Of a stretch of DNA of 30,396 nucleotides, positions 1,831-24,594 are shown piece after piece. Position 1 is the first letter of the stretch, and each line of letters starts with the position of its first letter. The position numbers and the translations under genes were made by a program. The notes under the pieces were generated by a model. That model ran no database searches, was not told the origin of the DNA, and saw only the letters and a list, made by a program, of their open reading frames with translations. The stretch is from Candidatus Auribacter fodinae (GTDB taxonomy: Bacteria > Auribacterota > Auribacteria > Auribacterales > Auribacteraceae), in the NCBI GenBank assembly GCA_003599815.1, contig QZJZ01000101.1:1-30396 (forward strand), written 5' to 3'.

Positions 1831-2811
1831 TTGGCGAAAGCAATAGGATTATTTTCCGGCGGGCTGGACAGCGTGCTTGCTGTTTTATTACTGCAAAAAC
1901 TTGGAGTAGAAGTACTTCCCATTACGTTTTCATCACCTTTTTTTAATACAAAAAAAACACTCGCCGCCGCAGATAAAATAAACATCTCTGTCCGCATTCT
2001 CGACATAACGGATCCGTTAATAGAAATCCTGCGCAACCCTGAGTATGGATTCGGCAAAAACATGAACCCTTGTGTGGACTGCCACGCGCTTATGCTGAAT
2101 GAAGCGGGAAAACTGATGGAAAAAGAAGGGTTCGATTTCCTCTTCACCGGCGAAGTGCTGAATGAACGCCCCATGTCGCAGACTATGAGCGCCCTTACTA
2201 TTGTGGCGAAAAAGTCCGGCTATGCGGATTATATTCTCCGCCCGCTCAGCGCCAAAAGATTGCCGCAAACCAAGCCTGAACGAGAAGGATTGGTCGACCG
2301 TTCACAACTGCTGGATTTCTGCGGGCGGTCGCGTAAACCGCAGATAGCACTCGCTGAAGAGTTCGGGGTCACGCAATACGAAAATCCCGCAGGAGGGTGT
2401 CTGCTCACCTATGAAGGATACAGTTTAAAGCTCAGAGACCTGCTAAAACACACACCCGGCGCGCCTCTGCGCCAGTATGACCTCCTCCGCATGGGCAGGC
2501 ATTTCCGGCTTCCATGCGGAAACAAGCTGATTGTCGGCAAAGACAAAAACGAAAACGAGTTCCTGTTGTCTCAAAAACAAGCGCATGATATTGTGTTGCA
2601 GGGGCACAATATCAAAAGCCCTATCGGACTGATTCCCTGCCCCACGGATTCCTGTGATTTTGACACGGCATGCAGGATTATCGCCCGATACTGCAAACCG
2701 GACACACGTGTGCCGATCGAACTGACTCGTGAAACCCCTGCTCTGTCCGTGATAAAGGAGGTAACGAAATTTTCACCTGAAGAATCGGATGTGTACCTGA
2801 TTACGGTCTGA
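1831..2811 (+). CDS. PP-loop superfamily ATP pyrophosphatase. Likely a tRNA thiolation / ThiI-MnmA-like adenylating enzyme; exact family not resolved
   Basis: SGGLDS PP-loop motif at residues 9-14. Conserved cysteines CVDCH and GGCLL. TTG start codon with a strong AAGGAGG RBS 7 nt upstream. Confidence 0.6.
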   Translation: MAKAIGLFSGGLDSVLAVLLLQKLGVEVLPITFSSPFFNTKKTLAAADKINISVRILDITDPLIEILRNPEYGFGKNMNPCVDCHALMLNEAGKLMEKEGFDFLFTGEVLNERPMSQTMSALTIVAKKSGYADYILRPLSAKRLPQTKPEREGLVDRSQLLDFCGRSRKPQIALAEEFGVTQYENPAGGCLLTYEGYSLKLRDLLKHTPGAPLRQYDLLRMGRHFRLPCGNKLIVGKDKNENEFLLSQKQAHDIVLQGHNIKSPIGLIPCPTDSCDFDTACRIIARYCKPDTRVPIELTRETPALSVIKEVTKFSPEESDVYLITV

Positions 2812-2842: not shown

Positions 2843-3607
2843 ATGAAAAGATTGGATACCAAAACAGCCGTTATTTTCGGCGCTACCGGCGGTATAGGCG
2901 GGGCGATAGCGCGCGGGTTTGTTCAGGAAGGGGCAACTGTGATTCCTGTCAGCAGGAACGAGGAAAGTGTCCGCGCCGCTGTATCCGAGTTGAACGCGCT
3001 GGGCAACCGGTTCACTGAAATTATCTGTTGCGACGTAACCCGTCAGGATCAGGTAGAGCAGGTATGCGCCCGCACTGCGGAGCTCTTCGGCAGGATCGAT
3101 ATCATGGCGTGCGTATCCGGGGCTTACATCAAGAAACCCGCAACCGATATTTCGCTGGATGAATGGAATACTGTACTGAATACCAATCTGACAGGAACGT
3201 TCATCACCAATCAGGCGGCAGGGAAATACATGCTGAAACAGGGAAAAGGCAGTATAATCAATATCGGGTCTCTGGGATCTGATGTGGCGTTATCCAATAC
3301 ATTGCCGTATTGCGCCAGTAAAGCGGGCGTGGTGATGGTCACGAAGTGCCTGTCATCGGAATGGGCAGGGTCCGGAGTCCGGGTCAACACCATCATACCG
3401 GGAGTATTCCCGACCAACCTGAACAGAAAAGCGCTCAGCGACCCGGTCAGGGTGGAAAATATTATCAAGCGCACGCCGATAAAACGGCTGGGCGCTGTGG
3501 ATGAACTTGCCGGAGCGGCGATTTTTCTGGCTTCGGACGAATCAGCGTTTGTAACAGGAATTGCCCTGCCAGTCGACGGAGGGTTTCTCGCGTTTTCCGG
3601 TTTTTAA
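2843..3607 (+). CDS. Short-chain dehydrogenase/reductase (SDR) family oxidoreductase, FabG-like
   Basis: N-terminal Rossmann motif GATGGIGGAIA. Catalytic S...YxxxK (YCASK). 254 aa. AAGGAG RBS. Confidence 0.85.
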   Translation: MKRLDTKTAVIFGATGGIGGAIARGFVQEGATVIPVSRNEESVRAAVSELNALGNRFTEIICCDVTRQDQVEQVCARTAELFGRIDIMACVSGAYIKKPATDISLDEWNTVLNTNLTGTFITNQAAGKYMLKQGKGSIINIGSLGSDVALSNTLPYCASKAGVVMVTKCLSSEWAGSGVRVNTIIPGVFPTNLNRKALSDPVRVENIIKRTPIKRLGAVDELAGAAIFLASDESAFVTGIALPVDGGFLAFSGF

Positions 3608-3610
3608 TAA

Positions 3611-3648
3611 AAAAAGCATGCCGCGTCATCACATCGGCATGCTTTTTT
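3611..3648. terminator. Bidirectional rho-independent terminator between convergent SDR and encapsulin genes
   Basis: AAAAAAGCATGCCG-loop-CGGCATGCTTTTTT. Perfect 8-bp GC-rich stem flanked by an A-run on one side and a T-run on the other, so it reads as hairpin plus U-tract on both strands. Confidence 0.75.
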
Positions 3649-3669: not shown

Positions 3670-4485
3670 TTACTTTTTCTTTGGTACAGCCAGCCCGATA
3701 GCGGCTTCAGGCGTCAGAACCTGAAACGTAAACGACTCGGTAAAATACAGTTCCACGTTTTCACTGCAATGCGACTGGTACCCGATAGACAAATCCTGCC
3801 CGACAGTCATTTCAAAATCACCGCCCCTGCTTGACAACAGGACGCCTCCGTCAATCGCGAACGACAATACTATATGCCCGCCAAGCAGTTCTTTGATCCG
3901 CTGATACAAAGAGTATCCGCAGTCATGGGCTTTAAGGAGCATTTTGTATGGTTCGAATCCGAGAACCAGCGAATACGGGCCTCCGATGCCGCTGGCGCGT
4001 AACGCCGCCACTGCATCTTCGACAACACCCTGTAAATCGTCAATTTTCGACGGTAACTGAACCGGCGTATGCGGCGACGATTTAAGAATACCGGTCACAT
4101 TCGCATCCGTAAAACCTTGATAAACGACAGTATCTTCAAACAACGCCGCTTTTTTTGCCGCTGACAGCAACGATTCTAAATCAGGATTTTTCATGCCCCT
4201 GCTTATGTTGTCCAGTTCCCAGATATTCAGTTTAAACGGGATACGGTATTCGATCAGCGGTTGTATTTCGCGCAGTCCCCATTTTACTCCGGGTATCGGT
4301 TCCGACGGGTACACTTTCACCAGCCCTACCGCTACGCCGCTGTAATCCCAGCCGTGGGGACCGGAAAAATCAACCATTTTTCGTGCGGATAAGGTATCTT
4401 TAAGCGTCAGTTTCGCCTGCGATTCCAGTACAGACCATGCATCGGAGGTGATAGGCGCTATGCTTCGTTTCAATATATCACTCAT
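3670..4485 (-). CDS. enc: Family 1 encapsulin nanocompartment shell protein (HK97-fold, linocin M18-like)
   Basis: 271 aa. Near-colinear with the T. maritima encapsulin as I remember it: N-term ..LKRSIAPIT..W, GPxGWxY, KWGLR, PLIExR, WELDN, SRGGDF, ILGQDLSIGY, FTESFTFQV. Confidence 0.9.
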   Translation of the reverse strand: MSDILKRSIAPITSDAWSVLESQAKLTLKDTLSARKMVDFSGPHGWDYSGVAVGLVKVYPSEPIPGVKWGLREIQPLIEYRIPFKLNIWELDNISRGMKNPDLESLLSAAKKAALFEDTVVYQGFTDANVTGILKSSPHTPVQLPSKIDDLQGVVEDAVAALRASGIGGPYSLVLGFEPYKMLLKAHDCGYSLYQRIKELLGGHIVLSFAIDGGVLLSSRGGDFEMTVGQDLSIGYQSHCSENVELYFTESFTFQVLTPEAAIGLAVPKKK

Positions 4486-4489
4486 GATT

Positions 4490-4861
4490 TCAGTCTCCTT
4501 TCCTCAACGATTTAATCCCCAGATCACCGGAACTGCTTTTCGCCGGGGCAGGAGATGATTCCCCTGATGAAGTTTCCGCGTCTTCAATGTCCGTCACGGA
4601 TCCTTCGGTGAACAGGTACGTGCGCAGATTCGTATCGAATACAGGCGTTTTTCTTCGTATCCATTCGAGAGCCATACACGCGTGTTCGACTTCCTCATCC
4701 CTGTTATGCAAAAGAATTCCTTTCAGTTCCTGATCGTCAGTCACGTCCGCGCGCTGGTTATACCAGTTGACGGCTTCCAGTTCTTCTATCAGGCTGACAA
4801 TAGCCCGGTGAAAATTTTTTGCTTCGGATGACAACCCTTCCTCATGAAACGGTTCTGCCAT
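4490..4861 (-). CDS. Encapsulated ferritin-like protein (EncFtn / Flp cargo) with C-terminal encapsulin targeting peptide
   Basis: 123 aa. Ferritin-like four-helix motifs (EELEAVNWY, EEVEHACMALEWIRR). Ser/Pro/Ala-rich flexible linker followed by SGDLGIKSLRKGD, matching the encapsulin cargo-loading peptide consensus. 4-nt gap to the encapsulin start. Confidence 0.85.
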   Translation of the reverse strand: MAEPFHEEGLSSEAKNFHRAIVSLIEELEAVNWYNQRADVTDDQELKGILLHNRDEEVEHACMALEWIRRKTPVFDTNLRTYLFTEGSVTDIEDAETSSGESSPAPAKSSSGDLGIKSLRKGD

Positions 4862-5078
4862 GCTCTCCTCCTTACAGTCAGGTTGAATAAACCGGTTTCT
4901 TTATTGCGGTATATGTGTATTGTCTGTTCTCAGATTCGAAAAGTCAATGCAATAATGCATAAAGTATGTACAGGTTTGATACATGGCATATGGGGTTGAG
5001 TTGAGTAAAAAGAAGAAAAAAATGCCCGGCGGCTATAAATTATAATGCAGATTTTTCCTGTGAGTGCACGGAGTTCCG

Positions 5079-5828
5079 TTATATTCCTGATGGGTCGATA
5101 TCGTTAATCACGGTATCTTCCGTAATCTGAAGTGTTTTCAGGATATGGGCGTCCATGGTGTATTCCGGGCGGTACGCATTGGTAATGGTGCTGGCAACAT
5201 CAAACGCCACCATCTGGGAGAAATACTGCATTGATACCATCATAACTTTCCAGTCCAGAAGCGGATGAGAATAGCGGAGATGACGGTAATAATAGTACCG
5301 CGCGAAATGTTCGACGTCGCGTGAGTTTCCGTCATATAGTTCGTTTATTGCCCACACAACAGTACCGGATGAAGCGTGTATCAGCTGAGCGCTTATACCA
5401 AGCGCGCATGGCTCGTACGGGTTATACCTCGTTATATGAGTAAACAGAATCGCGTCAGCGTTAAACCGACTGCCAAAATCAAAGATGCGTATTTTGTAGA
5501 ATTTCCCGTCACGGCGCACATTGACATCGTCAAATTCAGGGACAGCATATTCGGGAGTAGGCACGATTTCGAATTTATTAATTTTTGACAATTCCGCAAG
5601 AAAAACCGGCGCCAGTTTCGAGTCAACATCCAAAACGCTGGTCTCGTTCTTTATGGGAGCAAACAGCACGCGCCGTATCTTAAACGACGCATAGTCAGGA
5701 TGCATATAGATATTGGTTGACCGGTAAATCGGGTCATTCATCACATAGGCGGCTTTCATCCCCGCGGAATTACAACCGGAGAGGACGGGCACAAAAGATA
5801 ATATCAATACTAGGCATTTTTTCAGCAT
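5079..5828 (-). CDS. Lipoprotein of unknown function
   Basis: Signal peptide plus lipobox (VLSGC) at the N-terminus. 249 aa. No recognisable catalytic motif. Confidence 0.55.
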   Translation of the reverse strand: MLKKCLVLILSFVPVLSGCNSAGMKAAYVMNDPIYRSTNIYMHPDYASFKIRRVLFAPIKNETSVLDVDSKLAPVFLAELSKINKFEIVPTPEYAVPEFDDVNVRRDGKFYKIRIFDFGSRFNADAILFTHITRYNPYEPCALGISAQLIHASSGTVVWAINELYDGNSRDVEHFARYYYYRHLRYSHPLLDWKVMMVSMQYFSQMVAFDVASTITNAYRPEYTMDAHILKTLQITEDTVINDIDPSGI

Positions 5829-5991: not shown

Positions 5992-6474
5992 TTAATTGGA
6001 AGCGCCCATTTTCAATGCTACTTCAACAGAAAAGTCGCCTTCGTCCATGCTGAACGGAATAACAACACACACAACGTCTTTGGGATAATTGGTGTAGTGG
6101 TTTTTTCCGACACAAACAACGGGCAGGGCGATTTTAAAATTGAATCCCATCTGCGTGAGTTCGCCTTTTGCTCCGCCGGCAATCATATTGGCAATTTCGC
6201 CGACCGCGTCTTTGACATCGTCATTAATATCATCGACATCCATTCCCAGCATATTGCTGACAACCCTCAATACGACTTCTCTGGGAAAATTGATCGTAAC
6301 CGATCCGGTTGCGTCTCCGGCGACGCCAATGGTTCCTGATATTTCGCACCGCATCTTCTCTGTGCCCTTCAGGTACACCTTGCCAATTGCAGGACTGGTA
6401 GACGCCATAGTAGACAAGGCATTGAGCGTCGCGTTAATAAAGGGATTTATGTATTCAACTTTCATAGTTGACAT
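5992..6474 (-). CDS. cheX: Chemotaxis protein CheX (CheC/CheX/FliY family CheY-P phosphatase)
   Basis: 160 aa. INPFINATLNALSTM N-terminus and the DAVGEIANMIAGGAKG motif characteristic of CheX. 22 nt downstream of cheY. Confidence 0.8.
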   Translation of the reverse strand: MSTMKVEYINPFINATLNALSTMASTSPAIGKVYLKGTEKMRCEISGTIGVAGDATGSVTINFPREVVLRVVSNMLGMDVDDINDDVKDAVGEIANMIAGGAKGELTQMGFNFKIALPVVCVGKNHYTNYPKDVVCVVIPFSMDEGDFSVEVALKMGASN

Positions 6475-6496
6475 TGTACAGTATCCTCCAATCTCT

Positions 6497-6856
6497 CTAC
6501 TTTCCGATGACAGCCTCGATTTTACTCTTCAGAACCTCGGGAGTAAACGGTTTCACCACATAGTTGTTCACTCCGGATTTTATCGCTTCCACGATATCCT
6601 CTTTTCCCGCTTCAGTAGTAACCATGATAATAGGAATATGTTTATATGTCTGGCTGGCGCGTACAGATTTAACAAACGTCAGCCCGTCCATTTCAGGCAT
6701 GTTCCAGTCTGTGAAAATAAGGTCGATCCCATCAAGTTTGGATAACGCATCAAGACCGTGTTCGGCTTCAACGATATCTTCCATTCCAAGCCGGCTTAAG
6801 GTGTTCTTAATGATTCTCCGCATCGTCGATGAGTCATCAACGACAATAACTTTCAT
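6497..6856 (-). CDS. cheY: Chemotaxis response regulator CheY (single REC domain)
   Basis: MKVIVVDDSSTMRR..DWNMPEMDG..K; 120 aa from the ATG with an AGGAGGGAG RBS. The upstream in-frame extension in the ORF track is unlikely. Confidence 0.85.
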   Translation of the reverse strand: MKVIVVDDSSTMRRIIKNTLSRLGMEDIVEAEHGLDALSKLDGIDLIFTDWNMPEMDGLTFVKSVRASQTYKHIPIIMVTTEAGKEDIVEAIKSGVNNYVVKPFTPEVLKSKIEAVIGK

Positions 6857-6961
6857 CCTGACTCCCTCCTTTTGCATTTCTAGTGAATATATTAGTCATA
6901 ACACTGTAATCGGCGAATTATGATAAAAATCAAGATTTTTTTGACAGTACACGAGAATATC

Positions 6962-9403
6962 TTAGTTTTTAACTTTTTTTAAGCCTTCGATAACAATATA
7001 TCGTTCCAGATCCGTTAATATTTCAGGTTGAAGAGAGCTGAGTGCGCGATATGCTCCGGGTACACCTAATGAGCTCAGTGAAACCAGCGCGGAACGACGA
7101 ACACTGGGACAGTGGTCGTCTACCAGCAGAGTCAGGTATTTCACCGACCGTTCGTCCTTTATTTCACCGAGTACCCCTGCGGCAATACGCCTCAGATAGA
7201 ATTGAGTCGCGTGTATGAAGGTGTCCATTTCTTTATATATCAGATCACCCTTTTTAACCAGCGCGTGATACGCATGCGCCGTGTAAAAAGAATGTTTAAG
7301 ATACGGTAACAGCGATTTGATCGTTGTACAAGCTTTATTTCTGCCGAAAGCATCTATGACTGTCCTGACAACAGGATACCCAACTTCTTCAGTATTATAC
7401 TGCCCGTCATTCAAAATAGCACAGAGAATTTTTTCTACTAAAGGATAATTAAAGTTCGCCAGCGCCTCTATGGCGGATAGTTTCAGAAACCAATTCCGTG
7501 ACGACGCTTTTTCTCTCAGCCACGGCAACGACGGTTCGTAGTGCAGTTTGCCCATTAAAGATGCCACGTATCCCTGAACGTACGGATCCGGGACATACTG
7601 AAGTTTCTGAAGCCCGTGAATACTTTCCGTACTTTTGTAATTATAAAGAAGTTCTGCGGCCGCGATCTGAACTCTGCGGCTTTGCATGGTATCAAGGTAA
7701 TTCAGCACCATGTCGAGCACCCATTCACTGTCAATATGCCCCATGGCTTTGACCACATGATACTGAATTGCCTCATCATTGCTGTCAAGGCATCGGTCAA
7801 AAAGATCGACCAGTTCCTTATGTCCGCCATATAGAGAAGCCAGGGTTTCCAGCGCATGTCCGACTACCGGTGTGCTTCCTTCCCTGATAACATCCACCAG
7901 AGCCTGATACAGTTCAGGATTTCTCAGCTGAGGGTCAGCATTATTCCGGCAGATAGAATATATGGCTTTCAGCGCGGCTATTTTAACATAGTTTTCCGTA
8001 TCCCTGAGGTATTTGCTGATCACCGGCACCAAACGCGGCAGGCCCAACAGTGAAAAAACCTGCAGTACAGTCGCGCGGAGATGCGAATTCGCGTTTTTCA
8101 GGCGATCCCGCAACTTGCTCACGACGAGTTCGGTATCAGGATACGCCGCAAGATTACGGCCCGCCGTCACGCAGACAATCTCATCAGGGTCGTCAAGCAT
8201 TTTAACCATAAGATCAACCACCTGAGGCAGTTCGCATTTACCTGCCCATTCGGCGGCTTCACGCCTCACACAAATATCCATATCAGCTAGATGATTCGAA
8301 AAGCATGAAAGGACTTCTTCCGCCCGGTGTTGAGGAAAAAAATACATTTGCAGTCGCTGGCAGGGCACGGAATACGATTCGCACTCCTGCATATCAATAT
8401 CCGGTACAGTCGACGGATCGACAAGCCGGACGATCATCTCAAAAAATTCAGGACGCTTGTCCACCCATAGCAGGGCATTTTCAAAAGAGATAGACGCGTT
8501 CATACGTTTCAGTACCCAGAGCAGTATTTTTGCCGATTGTTTATTTTCGTCCGGCATCATTTCGCATATTACCTGCGCGACCCGCGGGGGCAAAGAGCTG
8601 AGCTGATTATTGAAATATTCAAGGACAATGCCGTCCTGCTGGTATTCCATGGCGTCAAAAATAGAAAATTCTATTTTATGCAGCGCGGCACATGCGGCAC
8701 GCACAGAGGCTGGCGATACTGAATCCGACTGCAGAAGTTCGCACAGCGGTTCCACGCATGACGGGTCAGCGACAAGACCCATATAGCATATGGCAAAGCG
8801 TCCAAGCACTTCGTGTTCAAGCATGCTCGCCATCTGGGGAATCAACGTTTCATCAGGCATGCACATAAGAGCGCTCATAACTAAAAACGCACGCCATGGA
8901 TCACTTTCGTTAATTTCGCGAAGTCTTTCTGATAGAATCGGTATAGAGTCTTTATTACAACAAGCGCCGATCGCTTCGTATATCAGGTCTCTGACCTTCT
9001 CATCTTTTTCATTTTCAAGAGCCGCAAGCAAATGGGGGTACGCGTTCGAGTCGCGGATATTGCCCAGCATTTGGATAGCGGACATGCGGTTTTTTTTGTC
9101 GGATGATTTCAGTTGCCCGGCAATAATTTCTATTGCCCGGTCGCCGAACTGATGCAGTATGAATTCAGCGGCCTGCTGTGTCGGCAGATCGGACTTATCC
9201 GCCCGGCTGACCAACTGCTCCAGCACCGTATCGGATACAGCGCTGTCATCGGAATGCGCATCATCCGCAGATGAACGCCCCCATTTGGCGACAAAATCAT
9301 TCATTAATTTATTATGCTGGAGACAGGGAAGCTGTACTATTAAATGATCGTCATCCAACGCGAATTTCAGGAACTCATTGATATGGGATGTATTATTTTT
9401 CAT
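6962..9403 (-). CDS. Large HEAT-repeat (PBS-lyase-like) protein
   Basis: 813 aa of repeated approximately 30-aa helical-hairpin units with a recurring E..V(R)..A..ALG.IG signature. No catalytic motifs. Confidence 0.75.
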   Translation of the reverse strand: MKNNTSHINEFLKFALDDDHLIVQLPCLQHNKLMNDFVAKWGRSSADDAHSDDSAVSDTVLEQLVSRADKSDLPTQQAAEFILHQFGDRAIEIIAGQLKSSDKKNRMSAIQMLGNIRDSNAYPHLLAALENEKDEKVRDLIYEAIGACCNKDSIPILSERLREINESDPWRAFLVMSALMCMPDETLIPQMASMLEHEVLGRFAICYMGLVADPSCVEPLCELLQSDSVSPASVRAACAALHKIEFSIFDAMEYQQDGIVLEYFNNQLSSLPPRVAQVICEMMPDENKQSAKILLWVLKRMNASISFENALLWVDKRPEFFEMIVRLVDPSTVPDIDMQECESYSVPCQRLQMYFFPQHRAEEVLSCFSNHLADMDICVRREAAEWAGKCELPQVVDLMVKMLDDPDEIVCVTAGRNLAAYPDTELVVSKLRDRLKNANSHLRATVLQVFSLLGLPRLVPVISKYLRDTENYVKIAALKAIYSICRNNADPQLRNPELYQALVDVIREGSTPVVGHALETLASLYGGHKELVDLFDRCLDSNDEAIQYHVVKAMGHIDSEWVLDMVLNYLDTMQSRRVQIAAAELLYNYKSTESIHGLQKLQYVPDPYVQGYVASLMGKLHYEPSLPWLREKASSRNWFLKLSAIEALANFNYPLVEKILCAILNDGQYNTEEVGYPVVRTVIDAFGRNKACTTIKSLLPYLKHSFYTAHAYHALVKKGDLIYKEMDTFIHATQFYLRRIAAGVLGEIKDERSVKYLTLLVDDHCPSVRRSALVSLSSLGVPGAYRALSSLQPEILTDLERYIVIEGLKKVKN

Positions 9404-9428
9404 TGTTGATCTATGCCGGTATCGGGTA

Positions 9429-10862
9429 TCACAAAGATACCCACTGTATTAAACGTACCTTTTCATCAAGGTAAAATTTCGTATATTTCATTTCTTCTTC
9501 AATAACCATCTTTTTCCCTTTTATGGAAATCTTCGATCCCGGATAGATGGTGCCGCGCACCTTGATAAAAGCAGGCTCACTGCTGATGGCAGACTCCAGT
9601 GCGGCATCACGTTCCGCAATAAGATCTTTTTTCTGCTGTTTCAACTGCTTGTACATATCAATAATCTTGCGCAGTTCAGCCGGCTGGTTCTGATAAAGAA
9701 CATCCAGAAACTCTTCAGGCATATTGCATATGCCTTCGCCCAGCGAATTCTGGATCTTCTCTATATTCTGTTCACAGAACTGTATTTTCTGAGATATTTC
9801 CTGAACGCGTTGTTTCAGCTCAGGCTGAACACCTGCTTCAAGAAAGGTTTCCGTGCCGGTAGGAGACCCGACATCCTTAACCATAATTTCCTTGCCTGCC
9901 GATGTCACGCCGCCAACGATTGTATCGTCCACTTGGATTCTGTCACACGCAATCAATTTACTGCCATAGACAGATTTTTTGACCATAATGGACTCTTCGC
10001 TGTACACGGTAGAATTCTGAATATAGCTCACCAGAATAGATCCGCCACATTTCACCACACTTTTATGCGACCCGACAATACCGCATTTAACCTTTAATGT
10101 GCCGCCGCACTCCACTGAAGCGTCAGTTACATTCTCACCAATATACACATCACCGCGTGCCTTGACATAAAAATCCGGTATCACTGAGCCCGTAACAGCG
10201 ACCGTGCCGGGAAAATCCACACAGCCGGTTTCAAAGTTGACATCGCCCTCTATCTGGCGCACACCAAGCACAGCCAGATAATTTTTCCGGTACATCAGCC
10301 TGCCGTCTATATTTGATATGTATACCTTTTTTTCTTCGTCAAATTCGACATTGTCTATTTGAATATTAAGCTTTTTTCCATGCTTTGATTTGACAGGGTT
10401 ACCATCAACAAGAATACCATCTTCACCAAGAGTCGGGTCATGATGACGCGCGATCATCTGCCCCTTTTTTATTTTAATGATGGTTTCTTTTTGTTTGTAA
10501 TCTATACTTCCGTCTTCTTTTTCCTTGCCGACAGACTGAACCACGGTATTGACCAGCATTTCAACACGCCCGTCTTTACCGTCTTTAGGCGGGGTACCCA
10601 CAGCAACGCGGATGTTCTCGAGGTTATCGCCGCTTTCTGCGAGTTTTCTTGATATTTCGCTCAGCATCGGGAACTTAATACCATGCACAACACCAAAATC
10701 AACCAGCTTATCTTTCAGTTCAAGAGGAGAAACAGTAATTGGTTCCCCATTTTTCGGATACACACTTAAAACAGCCTGCATCTTATCATGAGAAACCTTG
10801 ATTACGAATTTCGTCTCTTTTTGTGAGGATGTGGTATTTAAACGTTGATCGAGATGTTCCAT
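9429..10862 (-). CDS. FapA-family (DUF342) protein: N-terminal domain, right-handed beta-helix repeats and C-terminal coiled coil
   Basis: 477 aa. Repetitive G-rich beta-helix-like segment (GTVAVTGSVI..VKARGDVYIGENV..GGTLKVKCGIVG..). Coiled-coil tail. Sits in a cluster with cheY/cheX. Confidence 0.65.
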   Translation of the reverse strand: MEHLDQRLNTTSSQKETKFVIKVSHDKMQAVLSVYPKNGEPITVSPLELKDKLVDFGVVHGIKFPMLSEISRKLAESGDNLENIRVAVGTPPKDGKDGRVEMLVNTVVQSVGKEKEDGSIDYKQKETIIKIKKGQMIARHHDPTLGEDGILVDGNPVKSKHGKKLNIQIDNVEFDEEKKVYISNIDGRLMYRKNYLAVLGVRQIEGDVNFETGCVDFPGTVAVTGSVIPDFYVKARGDVYIGENVTDASVECGGTLKVKCGIVGSHKSVVKCGGSILVSYIQNSTVYSEESIMVKKSVYGSKLIACDRIQVDDTIVGGVTSAGKEIMVKDVGSPTGTETFLEAGVQPELKQRVQEISQKIQFCEQNIEKIQNSLGEGICNMPEEFLDVLYQNQPAELRKIIDMYKQLKQQKKDLIAERDAALESAISSEPAFIKVRGTIYPGSKISIKGKKMVIEEEMKYTKFYLDEKVRLIQWVSL

Positions 10863-10918
10863 TGTTTATGTTCCGATCCTGAGCCGTCTGTTCCGCTGTG
10901 CCGCGCGAAACCGGGTTA

Positions 10919-11257
10919 TTAGACTGTAAAACTTGCTACTGCCTCATCTTCGTTCTGATAAATGTCAAATACCTTGCGCAGGTTGGTAAAACTGAACAAA
11001 TCTTCAAGTTGAGGCTGTAACGCGCAGAGTTTCAGGTTTCCACCGCTGGCGTTCGCCAGTTTGTACAAGGCGATAAGTTCACGGAGGCCGGCGCTGTTGC
11101 TGTAACTCAATTCCTTGAAATCAAGAACGATGTTCACCTTTTCTGATTCAATAAGTTTTTCAATGTTTTTGCGAAGGTATTCCGAGCTTTCATTATCCAG
11201 TTCACCCTTGAGATGGACGACAGAAACCTCGAGATTGCTTTTTGTCGTAATTTCCAT
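10919..11257 (-). CDS. STAS-domain anti-sigma-factor antagonist (SpoIIAA/RsbV-like)
   Basis: 112 aa. LDFKELSYSNSAGLREL carries the conserved phosphorylatable Ser region. AGGAGG RBS. Confidence 0.8.
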   Translation of the reverse strand: MEITTKSNLEVSVVHLKGELDNESSEYLRKNIEKLIESEKVNIVLDFKELSYSNSAGLRELIALYKLANASGGNLKLCALQPQLEDLFSFTNLRKVFDIYQNEDEAVASFTV

Positions 11258-11304
11258 GTGCGATTCCTCCTATTGTATCTGAACTTTACGTTATGATCGT
11301 ATCG

Positions 11305-12177
11305 TCAGCGGGTTGACCATACCCCGCTATCCATTTGCCGGGTACCGTCCCCTGCATTTTTCGCTTTGGCATATTTAACCAGCATTACTTCGTTGCCTTT
11401 ATCGTTGTAGTACACTTCATCCATATAGTAACTGATTAACAATACACCCCGCCCTCCCTCACGGTGGAGGTTGCTCGGATCTTTCGGATCCGGTACTTGC
11501 GAGACATCAAACCCCGGGCCTTCGTCACGAATCGTGACCATCAGTTTCTGCGGCGAGATCTGAGTCCTTATTTTTACCTTTTTATCAATATTGCTGTGAT
11601 TGCCATGTTTGATAGCGTTGTTAAGCGCTTCATCAATGGCAAGTTTCACCCGCATGGAAAACTCGTCTTCAGGAAACCCCAACTGCCGGGCTCCCTGATA
11701 AATATGATGAATTACACTACGGATGAGCATAACATCGCTCGGCATATCGAAACTCATTTCAACAGTCAGAAACGGGAGCACTTCTTTCTGTTTATCGGAA
11801 AATTTCTTAACCTCAAGCCCTTTTTTGACAATGCGCGTCAACTCTTCGATTTCAAACGGTTTGCGGCAGAAGTTAAATGCTCCGCTTTTCAACGCTTTGA
11901 CCGCTATTTCCTCGTTGCCGCCGCCGGTTATCACAATAACCGGTAAATCAGGCGATATCCTTTTTATCTCTTCCATAAGGACAATACCGTTCATCCCCGG
12001 CATATTCACATCAGTGATTACCAAATCAAAGGCATTTGCCCGCAAGGTTTCCAGAGCAGAAGCGCCGTTTAACACAGTAGTGACCGCACAGTTCTGCCTG
12101 TTCAGAATATCTTTAAGCAAACAACAGATGAGTTCATCGTCATCTACAACAAGAATGTGTCCAAGAACCTGATCCAT
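11305..12177 (-). CDS. Response-regulator receiver domain fused to an RsbW/SpoIIAB-like anti-sigma serine kinase (HATPase_c_2)
   Basis: N-terminal REC (VVDDDE..D..NMPGMNG..K). C-terminal LAIDEALNNAIKHGN plus DEGPGFD and GRG motifs typical of partner-switching kinases. Confidence 0.8.
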   Translation of the reverse strand: MDQVLGHILVVDDDELICCLLKDILNRQNCAVTTVLNGASALETLRANAFDLVITDVNMPGMNGIVLMEEIKRISPDLPVIVITGGGNEEIAVKALKSGAFNFCRKPFEIEELTRIVKKGLEVKKFSDKQKEVLPFLTVEMSFDMPSDVMLIRSVIHHIYQGARQLGFPEDEFSMRVKLAIDEALNNAIKHGNHSNIDKKVKIRTQISPQKLMVTIRDEGPGFDVSQVPDPKDPSNLHREGGRGVLLISYYMDEVYYNDKGNEVMLVKYAKAKNAGDGTRQMDSGVWSTR

Positions 12178-14093: not shown

Positions 14094-14520
14094 GTGACAT
14101 CGAATGTTTGATTTTTTACATAGAACTGGGTATCTCGGTACTTACCGACAGTTAAATTAGCGAACAGACTGCTATTCAAACTGCTCTGAAGTCAGATAGT
14201 TCAACAGATACACAACATTATCCGAACCGCCACCCTGATCCATATAAAATATCACCTTGTCCTTGAATACAAAATTGTTTTCCTGATTCACGAATTAAGA
14301 AACGGTCAGATCTGATGTATACAGCGTTCCGGCCACCCTCATCATGCGCTTTCAGTTTACTGAATCAATCCGATATCTGAACCCGCTCCCGTAATACTAA
14401 TCTTAATTAATATTACAGAGGATATTTCCTCACTACCTCAAAAAAGGCTTAATAAGCTGATTTTTGTATATGGTTTCAAGCATATCAGCGATAGTTTAAT
14501 GCTATGAAAGGAAGGCGACA

Positions 14521-14766
14521 ATGAAATATTTTATCATTTTAAATTTATTAATAATGTCCATGTCAATAAACGGTTGCTCAAACCCATGGGGCGCCGCCGG
14601 ATTAGGAGCCGCAGGCGGAGCGGCGGCAGGCGTCAGCAGTTATGAAATCAACGCAAAAAAGGAAATGGACAGAATTAAAGATGATTATGATGATGGAAAA
14701 ATAACAAAAGAAGAATACGAAATACGAAAAGATCAGATTGAGCGAATGGCTATTTTTCAAAGATAA
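14521..14766 (+). CDS. Small lipoprotein with glycine-zipper and SHOCT-like C-terminal motif
   Basis: Lipobox (SINGC). GAAGLGAAGGAAAG glycine zipper. GKITKEEYEIRKDQI resembles the SHOCT short C-terminal domain. GGAAGG RBS. Confidence 0.5.
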   Translation: MKYFIILNLLIMSMSINGCSNPWGAAGLGAAGGAAAGVSSYEINAKKEMDRIKDDYDDGKITKEEYEIRKDQIERMAIFQR

Positions 14767-14873
14767 CTAAAAGAGAACCTATCGATCAATCCTGACTTTT
14801 CTTTTCGGTTAGAGTTTCATTGAACGGGGTGCAGATTATAGTTATATTTCAGCACGTTCAAAGGAGAAAGATA

Positions 14874-15137
14874 ATGAAAAAATTTAATACGCTGTTTGCC
14901 GCTGTAATGATTGGACTGCTTCTGTTTTCCGGTTGTGCTCGCGATACAGTCGTAAGAAAAGAAACTACCCACACACCAGATGGTGACGTTATTATTGAAG
15001 AAGAAATCGTGACCAGAGAAAAGGACGACGGTTTTCGCGACGACCCAAGCATTCTCGGAGCAGTTTTCTTTGTTATCGGAGAAGTAGTGGCTTTACCGTT
15101 CAGAATTGTTGGCGGCGCGTTTGACTTAATCTTTTAG
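14874..15137 (+). CDS. Small lipoprotein (88 aa from the internal ATG with AAGGAGAAAG RBS)
   Basis: MKKFNTLFAAVMIGLLLFSGC gives a signal peptide plus lipobox. The ORF-track start at 14820 lacks an RBS. Confidence 0.5.
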   Translation: MKKFNTLFAAVMIGLLLFSGCARDTVVRKETTHTPDGDVIIEEEIVTREKDDGFRDDPSILGAVFFVIGEVVALPFRIVGGAFDLIF

Positions 15138-15163
15138 AAATTGAGGGAAAAAGCTGAAACATA

Positions 15164-15190
15164 ATTAATTGGGGACACATCCCAATTTTA
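15164..15190. repeat. Left terminal inverted repeat / subterminal hairpin of the transposase element
   Basis: AATTAATTGGGGACACATCCCAATTTT. Its reverse complement matches 15894-15923 at 18 contiguous positions plus flanking AATTAA. Confidence 0.6.
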
Positions 15191-15856
15191 GTCTGATTTT
15201 TTGGGGCGTCCTACGGGGCGTTTGGTTAAGTCTCTTTTTGTCAGCTTCATTACTTTTTCATAGAAACGCATGGAACCTATCGGATAACCTCTGCTCGTTG
15301 ACCGTGATATCATCTCATATTGACCTGAATTCGGCGGTAACTTTAAAAACTCAAGATATTCTTCCCGATTAGCATATTCAGGAAAAATATCGTCCAGAAA
15401 TTCCGGGGTTTTTCCTGATACCCGATACTTTGCGCTTCCCCACTCATATTGTTCCGGCTGACCCACTATCCCGGCACGCACGGCATTTCGCTCGATATAT
15501 CGGCACACCGCTAACAAATACGTGTCTGTTTCCACCGGCGACGAAAAAAACCTGCATTCCCATAACCTGCCGGTTCGCTTGTATTTGTCATTGGCGTACT
15601 GCGTGTATTTTAAAGCAACTTTCTGCATGAACTTAGACAACGATTCCGCCTTCAAGGGAATTATTAAAAGATGCACATGGTTATCCATCAAGCAATACGA
15701 CAAAACCTTGCACTCGGTATCCTGCTTGTATCGTTGGACTAAAGCGAGGTATTCCTGGCGATCCTGATCGTCTTCGAAGATCGCCTGTTTGTTGTTCCCT
15801 CGTTGGACAACATGATGAGGGTAATCTGGTATAATAATGCGTGGTATTCTTGCCAT
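15188..15856 (-). CDS. IS200-like / REP-associated tyrosine (Y1, HuH) transposase
   Basis: MARIPRIIIPDYPHHVVQRGNN.. followed by the HuH motif MDNHVHLLI and catalytic Tyr context RYIERNAV. Likely ATG at 15856; the ORF-track start at 15880 is a TTG. Confidence 0.8.
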   Translation of the reverse strand: MARIPRIIIPDYPHHVVQRGNNKQAIFEDDQDRQEYLALVQRYKQDTECKVLSYCLMDNHVHLLIIPLKAESLSKFMQKVALKYTQYANDKYKRTGRLWECRFFSSPVETDTYLLAVCRYIERNAVRAGIVGQPEQYEWGSAKYRVSGKTPEFLDDIFPEYANREEYLEFLKLPPNSGQYEMISRSTSRGYPIGSMRFYEKVMKLTKRDLTKRPVGRPKKSD

Positions 15857-15893
15857 AAATACATAGTATGAGCCGATCAAAAAGTTGTCAAGA

Positions 15894-15923
15894 AAAATTG
15901 GGATGTGTCCCTAATTAAAATTG
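15894..15923. repeat. Right terminal inverted repeat / subterminal hairpin of the transposase element
   Basis: AAAATTGGGATGTGTCCCTAATTAAAATTG; inverted copy of 15164-15190. Confidence 0.6.
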
Positions 15924-16277
15924 TTTTTGAATGATAGGGGCAACAGTTTCTTTATCTATTCCGTTATTCTTACAATATTGCGAATTGAGCCAATCAGAAA
16001 GAATTTTCGTTCCCTTGCTTGAGTTACAAGAAGAACAACATAAAGCAATATTTTCTCTGGTAATAATGCCTGCATCGTTTATGATATGTTCCCATGTTGC
16101 CACATTTTTTCTAGAGCAACCACGAGGAACAGATTCAAGAAGTTCAACACCACAATAAACACAAAATTTATCCCTCTCGCGCACTTCTCTCTCGAGCCAT
16201 TCAGGGATACCCCAAGCATTACTCATTTTTCCACACTCCCGACATCTGTTTGAGACTAAAATACTGACAGACACCAT
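15915..16277 (-). CDS. Small stand-alone HNH endonuclease
   Basis: CVYCG...WEHIIN...N..LCCSSCNSSKG is the CxxC...H..N...CxxCN..K(G) HNH core. Start is ambiguous: ATG at 16277, or ATG at 16226 with a GGGAG RBS. The stop lies inside the right IR of the neighbouring element. Confidence 0.65.
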   Translation of the reverse strand: MVSVSILVSNRCRECGKMSNAWGIPEWLEREVRERDKFCVYCGVELLESVPRGCSRKNVATWEHIINDAGIITRENIALCCSSCNSSKGTKILSDWLNSQYCKNNGIDKETVAPIIQKQF

Positions 16278-16328: not shown

Positions 16329-18917
16329 TTACATATGAGCCTTGAACACAAGCGACCCGTCTGCCATATCAACGGTGATCGCCTCACCGTCAGTGATACT
16401 GCCGTCGAGCATTTTCATGGCAAGCGGGTTGAGTATCTGCTGCTGCACCGCCCGTTTCAAAGGACGCGCCCCGAACACAGGGTCATACGCTGAATCCGCA
16501 AGATAATCCTTAGCCGCGTCAGTCAAGGTTAGCGAAATATTTTTTTCAGCGAGCCGTTTATCAAGACGGGTAAGCTGTATATCTATAATACGCCCGATAT
16601 CCGCACGGGTAAGGCTGTTAAACAGGACAATATCATCCACCCTGTTCAGGAATTCCGGTCGAAAATGCTGGTTAAGCAGTTCAAACACACTTTCTTTGAT
16701 GCGTTCCCTGTTGTCGCCGCTCATTTCCCGTATGAGATGACTGCCGATATTCGATGTCATGATTAAAACAGCGTTTTTAAAGTCCACGGTACGCCCTTTG
16801 TTATCCGTCAATCGCCCTTCATCGAGTATTTGCAGAAATATATTGAACACATCATGATGCGCTTTTTCGATTTCGTCAAACAGGACAACCGCGTAAGGCC
16901 TGCGGCGTATCGCTTCGGTAAGCTGTCCGCCTTCCTCGTAGCCGACATACCCCGGAGGCGCGCCGACCAGCCGCGAAACAGAATGTTTTTCCATATACTC
17001 GCTCATATCAATGCGAATCATGGCTTTTTCATCGTCAAACAGGAACTCGGCAAGAGACCGTGCCAGCTCGGTTTTACCCACGCCTGTGGGTCCGAGAAAC
17101 ATGAACGAACCGATCGGGCGGTCAGGATCCTGTATATCCGCGCGGGCACGGCGTATGGCGTCAGACACCAGAGTGATAGCGCCGTCCTGCCCGATAACCC
17201 GCTGTTTCAGGCGGTCTTCCATCTTAACCAGTTTCTGGCGTTCGCTTTCCAGCATTTTCGATACGGGCACGCCTGTCCATTTGGATATGATTTCCGCGAT
17301 ATCCTCCGCATCGACTTCTTCTTTGAGCATCACGGATATTTTCTGGAGTTCAGCCAGTTTTTTGTTTTCCGCGTCGAGTTTATCGTTCAGCTCGCGTGTT
17401 TTGCCGTACCGGATTTCAGCGACCTTTTCCAGTTTGCCTTCACGTTCATATCGTTGTTCTTCGTTTTTAAGTTGTTCGAGCTGTTCTTTTATCGCCCGGA
17501 TGCTCTCTATGATGTCTTTTTCCTGCCGCCAGTGCATTTTGAGCGAATCGCTTTTCTCTTTTGACTCGGCAAGTTCTTCTTCCAGTTTGTTCAGCCGTTC
17601 TTTGGACGCAGGGTCTTTTTCCTTGCGCAGAGCCTGCTTTTCGATTTCCAACTGCATGATACGACGTTCGATTTCGTCTATTTCAACAGGCATGCTGTCG
17701 ATTTCGATGCGCAGTTTGGATGCCGCTTCGTCTATTAGGTCGATTGCCTTGTCCGGCAAAAACCGGTCAGTAATGTATCGGTTGGACAACATCGCCGCCT
17801 GAATGATAGCGTTATCCGTAATACGCACGCCATGATGCACTTCATATTTTTCTTTCAGCCCTCTCAGGATGGAAATCGTATCTTCCACGCTCGGCGGTTC
17901 AACCATGACAGGCTGGAACCTTCGTTCCAGAGCGGCGTCTTTCTCTATATATTTGCGGTACTCATCGAGCGTGGTTGCGCCGATACACCGCAGTTCGCCT
18001 CGCGCAAGAGCGGGCTTCAGCATATTCGATGCGTCAACAGCGCCTTCCGCGCCACCGGCTCCGACAAGCGTATGCAGTTCGTCTATAAAAAGGATAATTT
18101 TCCCTTCTGCGGCTTCCACTTCGCGCAGAACGGCTTTCAGGCGGTCTTCAAACTCGCCCCGGAACTTCGCGCCTGCGATCAAAGCCCCGATATCAAGCGT
18201 AATCAGTGTCTTGTTTTTGAGTCCTTCCGGCACGTCGCCCGCGACCATACGCTGAGCAAGGCCTTCGACGATAGCGGTTTTACCCACTCCCGGTTCGCCG
18301 ATAAGGACAGGATTATTTTTTGTGCGGCGTGATAAGACCTGCATGACACGCCGTATCTCATCGTCACGCCCGATTACCGGATCGAGTTTTCCTTTGCGGG
18401 CAAGTTCGACAAGGTTTCTGCCGAACCGGGTAAGCGATTCGTATTTGCTCTCAGGATCCTGATCGGTTACACGCTGTGAACCACGAATAGATTTCAGTAC
18501 GGAAAGAATATCGTCCGGTGTCATAGAGAATTGTTTCAGTATTCCCGCCGCCCGTGATTTGGTTTCGAGCGTCATGGCAAGAAGCAGGTGCTCTGTACTG
18601 ATATACTCGTCTTTGAGTTTTTCCGCTTCGTTTTCCGCTCGGTCAAATACGGATTGGAGCTCAGCGGAAATGTACATATTCGACTGCGCGCCGTATACCT
18701 TCGCATCTTTTTCCAGAGCGGACTGGCACGCTGACCTGACCGCATCGGGCTGTATACCGAGTTTCTTGAATAACGGTTCAATGATCCCGTCCCGCTGATC
18801 AATCAGAGCAAGCAAGAGATGCACGGATGTGATTTCCTGATGCGAATAGTCCCGTACGAGCCGCTGGGCGTCCTGAAGCGCCTGCTGGCTTTTGATGGTT
18901 AAATTATCAAACCGCAT
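16329..18917 (-). CDS. clpB: ATP-dependent chaperone / disaggregase ClpB (two AAA+ modules plus coiled-coil middle domain)
   Basis: 862 aa. Double Clp N-domain. Walker A GEPGVGKT and GPTGVGKT. Long coiled-coil M-domain. Colinear with ClpB. Confidence 0.95.
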
Positions 18918-18927
18918 AGTAGTCCCC

Positions 18928-19764
18928 TTACCTTAAGCTCATCAACCGTTCAATACGCTGTTCGGTGGATGGATGCGTACTGAATAAACTGGTGAAAAAA
19001 TCTTTTTTGAACGGATTAACGATAAACATATGTGCTGTTGCCGGAGAGCCGCCGACCACAGGGTTGCGGCGGACGCTCAATTCAAGTTTACGCAACGCAG
19101 ATGCAAGCCCGTCCGGCGAGCCGGTTATCGAAGCCGCGCCGGCATCCGCCTGAAACTCGCGTGCCCGCGATACAGCCATCTGTATGATAAGCGCGGCTAT
19201 CGGCGCGAGGATAGACAACACCAGCAGTCCCAGCGCGTTATCGTCTCTGCGTCGTCCGCTTCCCACAAACATGAACGACCACCGCAGAATATTTGCCAAC
19301 ATCGCTATGGCTCCCGCAATGGTAGCGGCAACAGACCCGATCAGGATATCGCGGTTTTTGATATGGCTCAGTTCATGAGCTATTACGCCGCTCAGTTCTT
19401 CCTTATTGAGCAGGCGCAGTATGCCTTCAGTAACCGCCACGACAGCGTGCTTCGGGTTGCGTCCTGTGGCAAAGGCGTTCGGGCGCGATTCCGGTACAAT
19501 GTACACGCGCGGCATCGGAAGATTCGCTCGCTGAGCAAGTTCCCTAACAATCGAATACAGCTCCGGCGCGTCAGATTCCGATACCGGTTGAGCGCGGTAC
19601 ATGGTTAGCACGATTTTATCGCTCCACCAGTAACTGGAAAAGTTCAGCGCGAGAGCGATCAGGAAAAAAAACATAGCTCCCTGCGAACCGCCAATATACC
19701 CGCCGAGCATAACCAGCAGTACGGTAAGTAATCCGAGAAGAAACACTGTTTTCATGAAATTCAT
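18928..19764 (-). CDS. htpX: Zinc metalloprotease HtpX (M48 family, membrane heat-shock protease)
   Basis: [10 protein letters not shown] (HExxH) plus N-terminal TM helices. Start taken at MNFMKTV (ATG 19764) with an AAGGAG RBS 9 nt upstream. Stop is 10 nt before the clpB start. Confidence 0.85.
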
Positions 19765-20048
19765 TTTTCTAACTCCTTTTTTATTAATCATGTCGCTATT
19801 TTTATTAACAAATACTATACCCTATACTATCGATTGGGCAAATTAAAATTATTCGAGTTCAACATCACACCTGAAACGCCGTTTCAACTGAGGTTAAACC
19901 GTCTTGCCAGTTAAATTATGGGTCATAATGTCTCAGTGATATCAAAAAGATGGCACACATAATTTATATACTTTTTAGTTAGAATCAGACGCTTAATATG
20001 GTATTAATAAAGAAAACAAAATACTTAACACTGAGAGAAGGGTTCTTC

Positions 20049-24526: not shown

Positions 24527-24594
24527 AGTATAACCGGATAAAAAGGATTGATATTTAAAGCAGTATGATAATCGACACGCTGAGGAGATGTCAA

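Follow-up and report, generated by a model that had tools for sequence, protein, structure and literature searches.

Two adjacent genes on the minus strand of a 30,396-nucleotide stretch of Candidatus Auribacter fodinae DNA (contig QZJZ01000101.1, the whole stretch being called the window below) raise a simple question: what do their products make together? NCBI already has identical entries (100%) for both proteins, from a Candidatus Auribacter fodinae / Auribacterota MAG, and names the larger “bacteriocin” and the smaller “ferritin-like domain-containing protein.” Here, we argue that the two genes very probably encode a classical (Family 1) encapsulin system whose cargo is an encapsulated ferritin (EncFtn). 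Family 1 encapsulins with ferritin-like cargo are among the two commonest and best-studied types of encapsulin systems (PMC8346489). The cargo gene comes first (4490..4861, minus strand, 123 aa) and the shell gene follows it (3670..4485, minus strand, 271 aa), with exactly the coordinates, lengths, and spacing of the original prediction. Four nucleotides, AATC, lie between the stop codon of the former (TGA, 4492-4490) and the start codon of the latter (ATG, 4485-4483). The Shine-Dalgarno motif that we read from the sequence for the shell gene on the grounds of its consensus, AAGGAG (4495..4500, minus strand), falls inside the last cargo codons, 9 nt 5' of the ATG. That of the cargo gene, AAGGAGG (4867..4873, minus strand), was also read from the sequence and lies 5 nt 5' of the ATG at 4861. 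The short spacer and the presence of the shell ribosome-binding site within the end of the cargo gene suggest that the two genes would be co-transcribed and translationally coupled.

Is the larger protein a shell? It matches the Pfam family Linocin_M18 (PF04454) at E 1.4e-78 over profile positions 2-253 of 253, and it scores 274.5 bits against the NCBIfam equivalog encap_f1 (NF041155; cut-off 100, positions 1-260 of 261). The profile search suggested as a check on the family thus gave a significant, full-length match, and one above the Family 1 cut-off as well. Among solved structures, the H. ochraceum encapsulin comes closest (PDB 7odw, E 3.4e-66, residues 3-265), and 23 solved encapsulin shell sequences of ~258-280 aa match the protein at E <= 4e-44. 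The motifs by which a shell had been recognized are all in the translation (GPHGWDY, KWGLR, WELDN, SRGGDF, GQDLSIGY, and FTESFTFQV); only the longer form ILGQDLSIGY needs amending, since the residues before GQDLSIGY are TV and not IL. Structure prediction, the second check, leads to the same family. In the AF2 model (pLDDT 76, pTM 0.75), a helix at the N terminus (H14-31) accompanies a P/A-domain core, and Foldseek aligns the model with the solved T=1, HK97-fold encapsulin shells of E. coli, H. ochraceum, K. pneumoniae, and M. tuberculosis at TM 0.83-0.85 (263-269 columns). Its best 27 matches are all small encapsulin shells (~264-272 aa, TM 0.72-0.85). The predicted fold is of the HK97 type, without insertion domains and with the N-terminal helix in place of the extended N-arm; this is the helix that forms part of the targeting-peptide pocket. 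The E-loop (residues 39-73) is modeled at low confidence, with a pLDDT below 50. Hence, the T=1 call rests on closeness to T=1 shells in sequence and fold and not on the geometry of the E-loop. From this closeness we infer that the shell would be a T=1 60-mer of ~24 nm.

The smaller protein, of 13.6 kDa, has the hallmarks of the cargo. It exceeds the cut-offs of both Pfam EncFtn-like (PF22277; E 2.5e-39, 133.3 bits, cut-off 27) and TIGR04535, the encapsulin-associated ferritin-like protein (148 bits, cut-off 125), and it matches the H. ochraceum EncFtn (PDB 7oe2_1 / 5n5f) at E 1.1e-38. In the AF2 model, two long helices run antiparallel (H12-40 and H44-71, pLDDT 91-98), which is the half-ferritin fold, and Foldseek places the model next to the EncFtn crystal structures 5n5f, 5da5, and 3k6c (TMt 0.78-0.85, 55-59% identity). 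The catalytic two-helix domain (residues 7-86; 4604..4843, minus strand) carries a ferroxidase center made of E27, E57, and H60, with Y34 nearby, and an entry site made of E26, E29, and W33. All these residues are invariant among 23 homologues. In the alignment to the PDB sequences, they correspond to E32/E62/H65, Y39, and E31/E34/W38 of R. rubrum (an offset of +5), and the stretch H52-NRD-E56-E57-V-E59-H60 reproduces the bacterial HXXXEEXEH signature (PMC11202242). The roles of the ferroxidase-center residues are known from mutagenesis in R. rubrum (PMC11202242), as are those of the entry-site residues Glu31, Glu34, and Trp38 (10.1101/785121). With its catalytic residues intact and both family scores above cut-off, the cargo bears out the assignment to the encapsulated-ferritin type of ferritin-like proteins. 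EncFtn homologues are annular decamers (pentamers of dimers) that act as ferroxidases but cannot store iron by themselves (10.1101/431494), and by homology we infer the same for this protein. We also considered the M. xanthus-type cargo proteins EncB and EncC, and rejected them since the scores fall below the NCBIfam cut-offs (EncB_fam, 70.8 versus 90 bits; EncB, 22.2 versus 210).

How would the cargo reach the shell? The cargo ends in a putative targeting peptide, SSGDLGIKSLRKGD (4493..4534, minus strand), which was assigned by homology and consensus and follows a disordered linker rich in Ser, Pro, and Ala; residues 100-123 have a pLDDT below 50 in the AF2 model. The peptide aligns with GSLGIGSLRQ, the localization sequence resolved in the H. 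ochraceum EncFtn structure 7oe2, and fits the Family 1 consensus SDGSLGIGSLKRS (PMC8346489). Among the cargo homologues L114 is invariant and G115 nearly so. When all six frames of the window were searched, the C terminus of EncFtn was the only place where such a peptide occurred. The locus thus has what characterizes Family 1, namely an adjacent, dedicated cargo gene whose product ends in a targeting peptide of this consensus.

Comparisons with known systems point in the same direction. The encapsulin and EncFtn of Haliangium ochraceum (7odw, 7oe2, 5n5f) are the best solved matches of both proteins, with 42% identity for the shell and 59% for the cargo and with similar lengths (271/123 aa here, 266/131 aa there). 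The two systems have in common the two-gene logic, the ferroxidase-center and entry-site residues, and a G-x-LGI-x-SLR peptide behind a flexible linker. They differ in the peptide itself, where Asp and Lys (GDLGIKSL) replace Ser and Gly (GSLGIGSL), in the short basic tail AVPKKK at the C terminus of our shell, and in the host, which is a member of Myxococcota there and of Ca. Auribacterota here. In H. ochraceum, 60 shell subunits form a T=1 particle containing four EncFtn decamers (Ross et al. 2022, PMC8791618). The Rhodospirillum rubrum EncFtn (Rru_A0973; 5da5), which provides the reference numbering of the catalytic residues, all kept here at an offset of -5, matches the cargo at E 2.6e-33, and the encapsulin of that species (9ry4 series) matches the shell at E 2.3e-64; the R. 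rubrum cargo is longer (140 aa), both at its N terminus and in its linker, than the 123-aa protein. The Thermotoga maritima encapsulin (maritimacin; 3dkt, 7kq5), the shell type that the original prediction had named, is, like the system proposed here, a T=1 shell that houses a ferritin-like cargo (Flp) in an anaerobe. It is a more distant match (E 2.4e-59, ~41% identity, TM 0.78-0.80) than the H. ochraceum, E. coli, and K. pneumoniae shells. One study reports that the T. maritima shell binds flavin (PMC8610991). The larger shells annotated as T=3/T=4 (M. xanthus EncA with EncB/C/D and the iron-storage encapsulin of Q. thermotolerans) have the HK97 fold, the link to iron, and the targeting-peptide cargo in common with our system. 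Yet, they are longer, share only 17-20% identity with the shell, and match it at E ~1e-5 to 1e-8; judged by its sequence, the locus is not a member of this larger-shell subgroup.

Gene order is conserved as well. A search of genome contigs with the shell protein retrieved 10 distant loci in other phyla, mostly in Bacteroidales MAGs and at best 47% identical, and all of them have an EncFtn homologue directly upstream of the shell gene. So does the closest relative (L011), which brings the count to 11 of 11 and agrees with the description of the locus as a compact two-gene operon.

What mechanism do these observations suggest? Our analysis shows to which families the proteins belong, their fold and catalytic residues, the targeting peptide, the order of the genes and how well it is kept, and the terminator described below. 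How the shell assembles, its T number, the uptake of the cargo, its ferroxidase activity, and the role in the cell would follow from the homologous systems of H. ochraceum, R. rubrum, and T. maritima, on which the proposed mechanism is built. Sixty copies of the 271-aa HK97-fold protein would come together on their own as an icosahedral T=1 cage ~24 nm across. During assembly, the C-terminal peptide GDLGIKSL of EncFtn would dock in a pocket of the shell wall that faces the lumen, and the flexible linker of ~15 residues would tether annular EncFtn decamers inside the cage. Fe(II) could then enter through the shell pores and be oxidized at di-iron ferroxidase centers formed across the EncFtn dimer interfaces by E27, E57, and H60, near Y34, with the E26/E29/W33 site gating access to these centers. 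The Fe(III) product would mineralize in the shell lumen. In this way the cell would store iron and keep free Fe(II) from meeting O2 and H2O2, i.e., from Fenton chemistry. Family, fold, residues, peptide, and layout all support the original reading of the locus as a probable nanocompartment for iron storage or oxidative stress.

Which of these two roles matters most? The same system, with its O2-dependent ferroxidase, is found in anaerobes such as T. maritima and P. furiosus. Ca. Auribacterota are uncultivated and inferred to be anaerobic fermenters (PMC9324843), so protection from transient oxidative stress would be at least as plausible as bulk iron storage. The compartment could then serve mainly to detoxify O2, H2O2, and Fe(II) under oxidative stress, with storage coming second, a possibility that we regard as less likely than not. 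Family 1 systems are generally linked to stress resistance (PMC8346489), and genes for ClpB (16329-18917) and an M48 HtpX-like peptidase (18928-19791) are present in the same 30-kb window, albeit ~12 kb away and unlinked to the operon. However, we identified no PerR, Fur, or OxyR box upstream of the operon, the nearest relative does not share the sequence of this upstream region, and one role does not preclude the other. A main role in stress would differ from the preferred explanation in physiology only, since the molecular mechanism is the same.

The regulatory surroundings of the operon raise an additional question: does it comprise two genes or three? At its 3' end, the boundary is clear. 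Between the shell gene, which ends at 3670, and the convergent SDR gene, which ends at 3607, we find an intrinsic terminator hairpin that is bidirectional and common to both (3609..3648, both strands). It consists of an A-tract, an 8-bp core (GCAUGCCG/CGGCAUGC) with an 11-nt loop, and a U-tract, so that the tracts flank the stem on both strands. The minus-strand RNA folds at -22.7 kcal/mol (z -5.6) and the plus-strand RNA at -20.1 kcal/mol (z -4.1), and none of 200 shuffled sequences was as stable. The strong bidirectional terminator proposed earlier is therefore real, although it extends over 3609-3648 rather than 3611-3648. A simple terminator scan did not list it, probably because the 11-nt loop exceeds the loop limit of that scan (3-8).

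The 5' end is less sharply defined. The operon does have its own upstream intergenic region, as had been proposed, with a length of 217 nt. It contains a weak candidate for a sigma-70-like promoter (TTGACT, 17 nt, GACAAT; 4919..4947, minus strand; 9/12 matches). There are 4 promoter-like sites in the region, which is no excess over the 3.1 +/- 2.0 expected from shuffled sequences. An independent promoter of the operon is not established, because chance alone would yield sites as good as that at 4947-4919. Neither this site nor a TGCATT-AT-TGCATT direct repeat over its -35-like hexamer is kept in the 65%-identical relative L011, and the alignment of the region with that relative has no conserved blocks except the ribosome-binding site and the start codon. 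Upstream lies a gene for a 249-aa lipoprotein (5079-5828, minus strand), which could be co-transcribed with the pair and functionally linked to it in a three-gene operon. It is on the same strand, it occupies the same position in L011 (49% identity), and it is separated from the cargo gene by no strong terminator, just by a stem of 3 bp with a U-run behind it, so transcription may read through from upstream. Nevertheless, we regard a three-gene unit as improbable. The gap of 217 nt with its promoter-like site stands between the genes, no lipoprotein homologue occurs at the 10 more distant encapsulin loci, and the lipoprotein lacks a targeting peptide. Its signal peptide and lipobox (LSGC) imply that it is exported, whereas encapsulins are cytoplasmic. 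Furthermore, the whole series FapA-HEAT-CheY-CheX-lipoprotein-EncFtn-shell is collinear between L011 and this locus. The adjacency of the lipoprotein hence reflects synteny between relatives and not a specific linkage. PADLOC and a loose Pfam scan returned nothing informative for the lipoprotein or for three large unknown ORFs.

The two-gene system could still be a variant of the canonical one in its physiology. It might be the first encapsulin noted in the deep-subsurface, presumed strictly anaerobic and fermentative Auribacterota, using an oxidant such as H2O2 instead of O2 or having a functional link to the upstream lipoprotein, which is conserved, exported, and belongs to no family. If true, either feature would give an otherwise canonical system a variant physiology. 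The published genomic description of the phylum mentions neither encapsulin nor ferritin (PMC9324843), and the accessible part of the supplement of Andreas and Giessen holds no relevant match to Auribacter, Aureabacteria, or SURF, which is not proof of absence. We consider this variant very unlikely, and we find nothing unusual in the architecture, residues, composition, or context of the operon. Its GC3 (0.51-0.53) is close to that of the neighboring genes (0.50-0.60) and gives no signal of horizontal transfer. The operon is thus not obviously transferred. The Rfam scan at gathering threshold and the tRNA scan of the whole window gave no matches.

The remaining explanations reject the compartment altogether, and we give both a negligible probability. 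One of them takes the 271-aa protein for a bacteriocin of the linocin M18 type that is secreted and acts against bacteria. The NCBI name of the identical protein and the name of the Pfam family suggest it, yet “bacteriocin” is a legacy label of the encapsulin shell family. PF04454 is described as “Encapsulating protein for peroxidase,” the NCBIfam entry reads “family 1 encapsulin nanocompartment shell protein,” the solved relatives are all icosahedral shells, the adjoining cargo has a targeting peptide, and we find neither a signal peptide nor a gene for immunity or export nearby. Likewise, the shell gene could be the remnant of an HK97-type capsid of a defective prophage next to an unrelated ferritin-like gene, given that encapsulins and phage capsids have this fold in common (PMC8346489) and that the window also contains an IS200-like transposase and a restriction-modification pair, but these lie >10 kb from the operon, its neighbors are genes for an SDR, the lipoprotein, CheX, CheY, a HEAT-repeat protein, and FapA, portal, terminase, protease, scaffold, and tail genes are absent nearby, and no phage families were found across the window. 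The prophage reading is also rejected on the score above the curated encapsulin equivalog cut-off, on the best 50 structural matches listed, which are encapsulin shells or engineered cages and include no phage capsid, and on the adjacent cargo with its matching targeting peptide.

For the Family 1 system, the consequence is mostly one of annotation. The proteins are already public and the locus is an uncharacterized member of a well-characterized system, so that replacing “bacteriocin” and “ferritin-like” by a Family 1 encapsulin and EncFtn iron nanocompartment mends the record and has little significance beyond it. The locus also adds a data point, in that encapsulin compartments occur in Ca. 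Auribacterota. Finally, among 5.8 billion protein clusters the closest other sequence is <=65% identical to the shell, which makes this a moderately divergent sequence that could be used for cage engineering.

Two tandem minus-strand open reading frames lie exactly where the original prediction had placed them, a cargo gene (4490..4861, 123 aa) followed by a shell gene (3670..4485, 271 aa), and ORF calling confirms this two-gene arrangement. Read from the sequence, the cargo stop codon TGA (4492-4490) is separated from the shell ATG (4485-4483) by a 4-nt spacer, AATC. Both genes have minus-strand Shine-Dalgarno motifs: AAGGAGG at 4873-4867, 5 nt ahead of the cargo ATG, and AAGGAG at 4500-4495 for the shell gene. 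Since the latter sits within the final cargo codons, translation of the two genes may be coupled. Downstream, a hairpin at 3609-3648 (A-tract, 8-bp GC-rich core, U-tract) separates the shell gene from a convergent SDR-family gene (2843-3607). Its proposed role as a bidirectional terminator is well supported at the level of structure, with folding energies of -22.7 kcal/mol (z -5.6) on minus-strand RNA and -20.1 kcal/mol (z -4.1) on plus-strand RNA, values matched by none of 200 shuffles. A simple consensus terminator scan did not pick it up, the 11-nt loop being the probable cause.

Upstream of the cargo gene, an AT-rich gap of 217 nt leads to a same-strand gene (5079-5828) for a predicted lipoprotein of 249 aa. 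This protein carries both a signal peptide and a lipobox (LSGC), matches no family in Pfam, NCBIfam or PADLOC, and has a 49%-identical homologue at the same position in L011, the contig carrying the closest non-identical relative of the operon. The cargo-shell operon likely has an independent promoter, for which TTGACT-17-GACAAT (4947-4919, minus strand) is the candidate. It is the sole minus-strand promoter-like match in the region, and such matches upstream of the cargo gene are not above chance. A direct repeat, TGCATT-AT-TGCATT (4946-4959, minus strand), overlaps the -35-like hexamer and is a possible operator, one not conserved upstream of the L011 operon. Alternatively, the lipoprotein gene could belong to a three-gene operon: it has no convincing terminator at its 3' side, and there may be transcriptional read-through from it. 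However, its product is predicted to be exported and lacks a targeting peptide, and its adjacency to the operon is limited to one collinear close relative, L011. No lipoprotein homologue was found at 10 more distant encapsulin loci, from Bacteroidales, Spirochaetaceae and Solirubrobacteraceae MAGs, making this larger operon unlikely. All 10 have an EncFtn (encapsulated ferritin) homologue directly upstream of the shell gene.

The cargo of the two-gene operon is a ferritin-like protein of the EncFtn type, as had been proposed. It matches Pfam EncFtn-like (PF22277, E 2.5e-39) and TIGR04535, "encapsulin-associated ferritin-like protein" (148 bits; cut-off 125), and scores under the cut-offs of the M. 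xanthus EncB families in NCBIfam. Its best solved match is Haliangium ochraceum EncFtn (E 1.1e-38), with R. rubrum EncFtn second. In the alignment with the latter (offset -5), the ferroxidase-centre ligands E32/E62/H65 correspond to cargo E27/E57/H60, Y39 to Y34, and the entry site E31/E34/W38 to E26/E29/W33. These seven positions are invariant among 23 aligned homologues, and mutagenesis has documented the roles of the ferroxidase-centre and entry-site residues (PMC11202242; 10.1101/785121). The segment H52-NRD-EE-V-EH60 matches the bacterial HXXXEEXEH signature. An AlphaFold2 model shows the half-ferritin fold, two long antiparallel helices (pLDDT above 90) with a disordered tail behind them; against crystal structures of EncFtn it gives TMt 0.78-0.85, at 55-59% identity. 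The tail terminates in SSGDLGIKSLRKGD, which can be aligned to GSLGIGSLRQ, the localisation sequence resolved in the H. ochraceum structure, and agrees with the consensus published for Family 1 targeting peptides, SDGSLGIGSLKRS (PMC8346489). A six-frame scan of the whole window revealed no second such motif beyond the cargo C terminus.

The 271-aa protein is a Family 1 encapsulin shell. It covers the entire Linocin_M18 profile (PF04454, E 1.4e-78) and scores 274.5 bits against the NCBIfam equivalog "family 1 encapsulin nanocompartment shell protein" (curated cut-off 100). All the shell motifs originally listed were found, except that GQDLSIGY is preceded by TV and not IL. The best solved structure is H. 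ochraceum encapsulin (7odw, E 3.4e-66), followed by the E. coli, R. rubrum, K. pneumoniae, T. maritima and mycobacterial shells (all E <= 4e-44); among the matches listed, the larger shells (M. xanthus EncA, Q. thermotolerans iron-storage encapsulin) reach only about 1e-5 to 1e-8. An AlphaFold2 model from 23 homologues (pLDDT 76, pTM 0.75) includes an N-terminal helix, as is typical of Family 1, and is of low confidence solely in the E-loop, residues 39-73. The best 27 Foldseek matches in the PDB are small encapsulin shells of about 264-272 aa, the highest TM being 0.83-0.85. Records identical at 100% to both proteins exist in NCBI, JGI and UniRef, the cargo as [quoted passage not shown] and the shell as "MAG: bacteriocin [Candidatus Auribacter fodinae]". 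This last label is a legacy family name; curated models and solved relatives both contradict a bacteriocin, as does the targeted cargo encoded next to the shell. Nor is the gene a leftover prophage capsid, since phage genes are lacking and the equivalog score is specific to encapsulins.

The encapsulin-EncFtn interpretation is thus supported: as far as sequence can tell, the locus has all the defining features of a Family 1 shell and an EncFtn cargo, and it shows no architectural deviation from such systems. Because its nearest solved relative, H. ochraceum encapsulin, is a T=1 60-mer with four EncFtn decamers inside (PMC8791618), we infer that the shell protein would form a self-assembled T=1 cage, about 24 nm in size. 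By homology, the C-terminal peptides would capture EncFtn decamers within the cage, Fe(II) would enter through shell pores and be oxidised at inter-subunit di-iron centres, and ferric mineral would be laid down in the lumen. EncFtn by itself oxidises iron without being able to store it, and the shell would therefore provide the storage cavity (10.1101/431494; PMC11202242). For an anaerobe, the likely gain is Fe(II) sequestration and consumption of oxidants under transient oxidative stress.

Candidatus Auribacter fodinae, of the PVC-group candidate phylum Auribacterota, was described from the deep-subsurface MAG SURF_26; the phylum was inferred to be anaerobic and fermentative, and the paper makes no mention of encapsulin or ferritin (PMC9324843). 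Flp/EncFtn ranks second in frequency among Family 1 cargo classes and is reported from 23 bacterial phyla (PMC8346489). The nearest non-identical shell shares 65% identity and most homologues 48-56%. This is a moderately divergent, uncharacterised member of a well-known system, from a little-studied candidate phylum. L011 is collinear with the window across the genes for FapA, HEAT-repeat protein, CheY, CheX, lipoprotein, EncFtn and shell, and the operon is similar to neighbouring genes in both GC and GC3.

The FapA-to-CheX genes belong to a motility and signalling cluster (5992-12177, minus strand) encoding CheX, a CheY-like receiver, an 813-aa HEAT-repeat protein, FapA, a STAS anti-sigma-antagonist-like protein and a receiver fused to an RsbW-like HATPase_c_2 kinase, in agreement with the flagella encoded by the MAG of this species (PMC9324843). 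About 12 kb from the operon are two proteotoxic-stress genes (16329-19791, minus strand), for the ClpB disaggregase (862 aa) and an adjoining M48 (HtpX-like) peptidase (287 aa). An IS200-like Y1 transposase ORF (15188-15880, minus strand), long for IS200 at 230 aa, adjoins a 120-aa ORF (15915-16277, minus strand) with weak HNH and PtuB-like matches. The stretch of roughly 1.1 kb ahead of them (14094-15187) holds no ORF of at least 110 aa, no tRNA and no Rfam match. Three consecutive large minus-strand ORFs (21081-25653; 617, 531 and 352 aa, the first two overlapping by 4 nt) have no Pfam match above threshold and no PADLOC match, their sole signal being a sub-threshold PMT_2 glycosyltransferase match in the 617-aa ORF. 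They adjoin an apparent Type II restriction-modification module (25809-27073, plus strand), in which a BglII-type restriction endonuclease (197 aa, E 1.9e-47) comes first and an MT-A70 family methyltransferase ORF (242 aa, E 9e-36) overlaps and follows it. Finally, 1831-2811 (plus strand) encodes a 326-aa protein with a TTG start. It joins a ThiI-type PP-loop ATPase region to an NFACT-R_2 RNA-binding domain at its C terminus and is a possible tRNA-modification enzyme.
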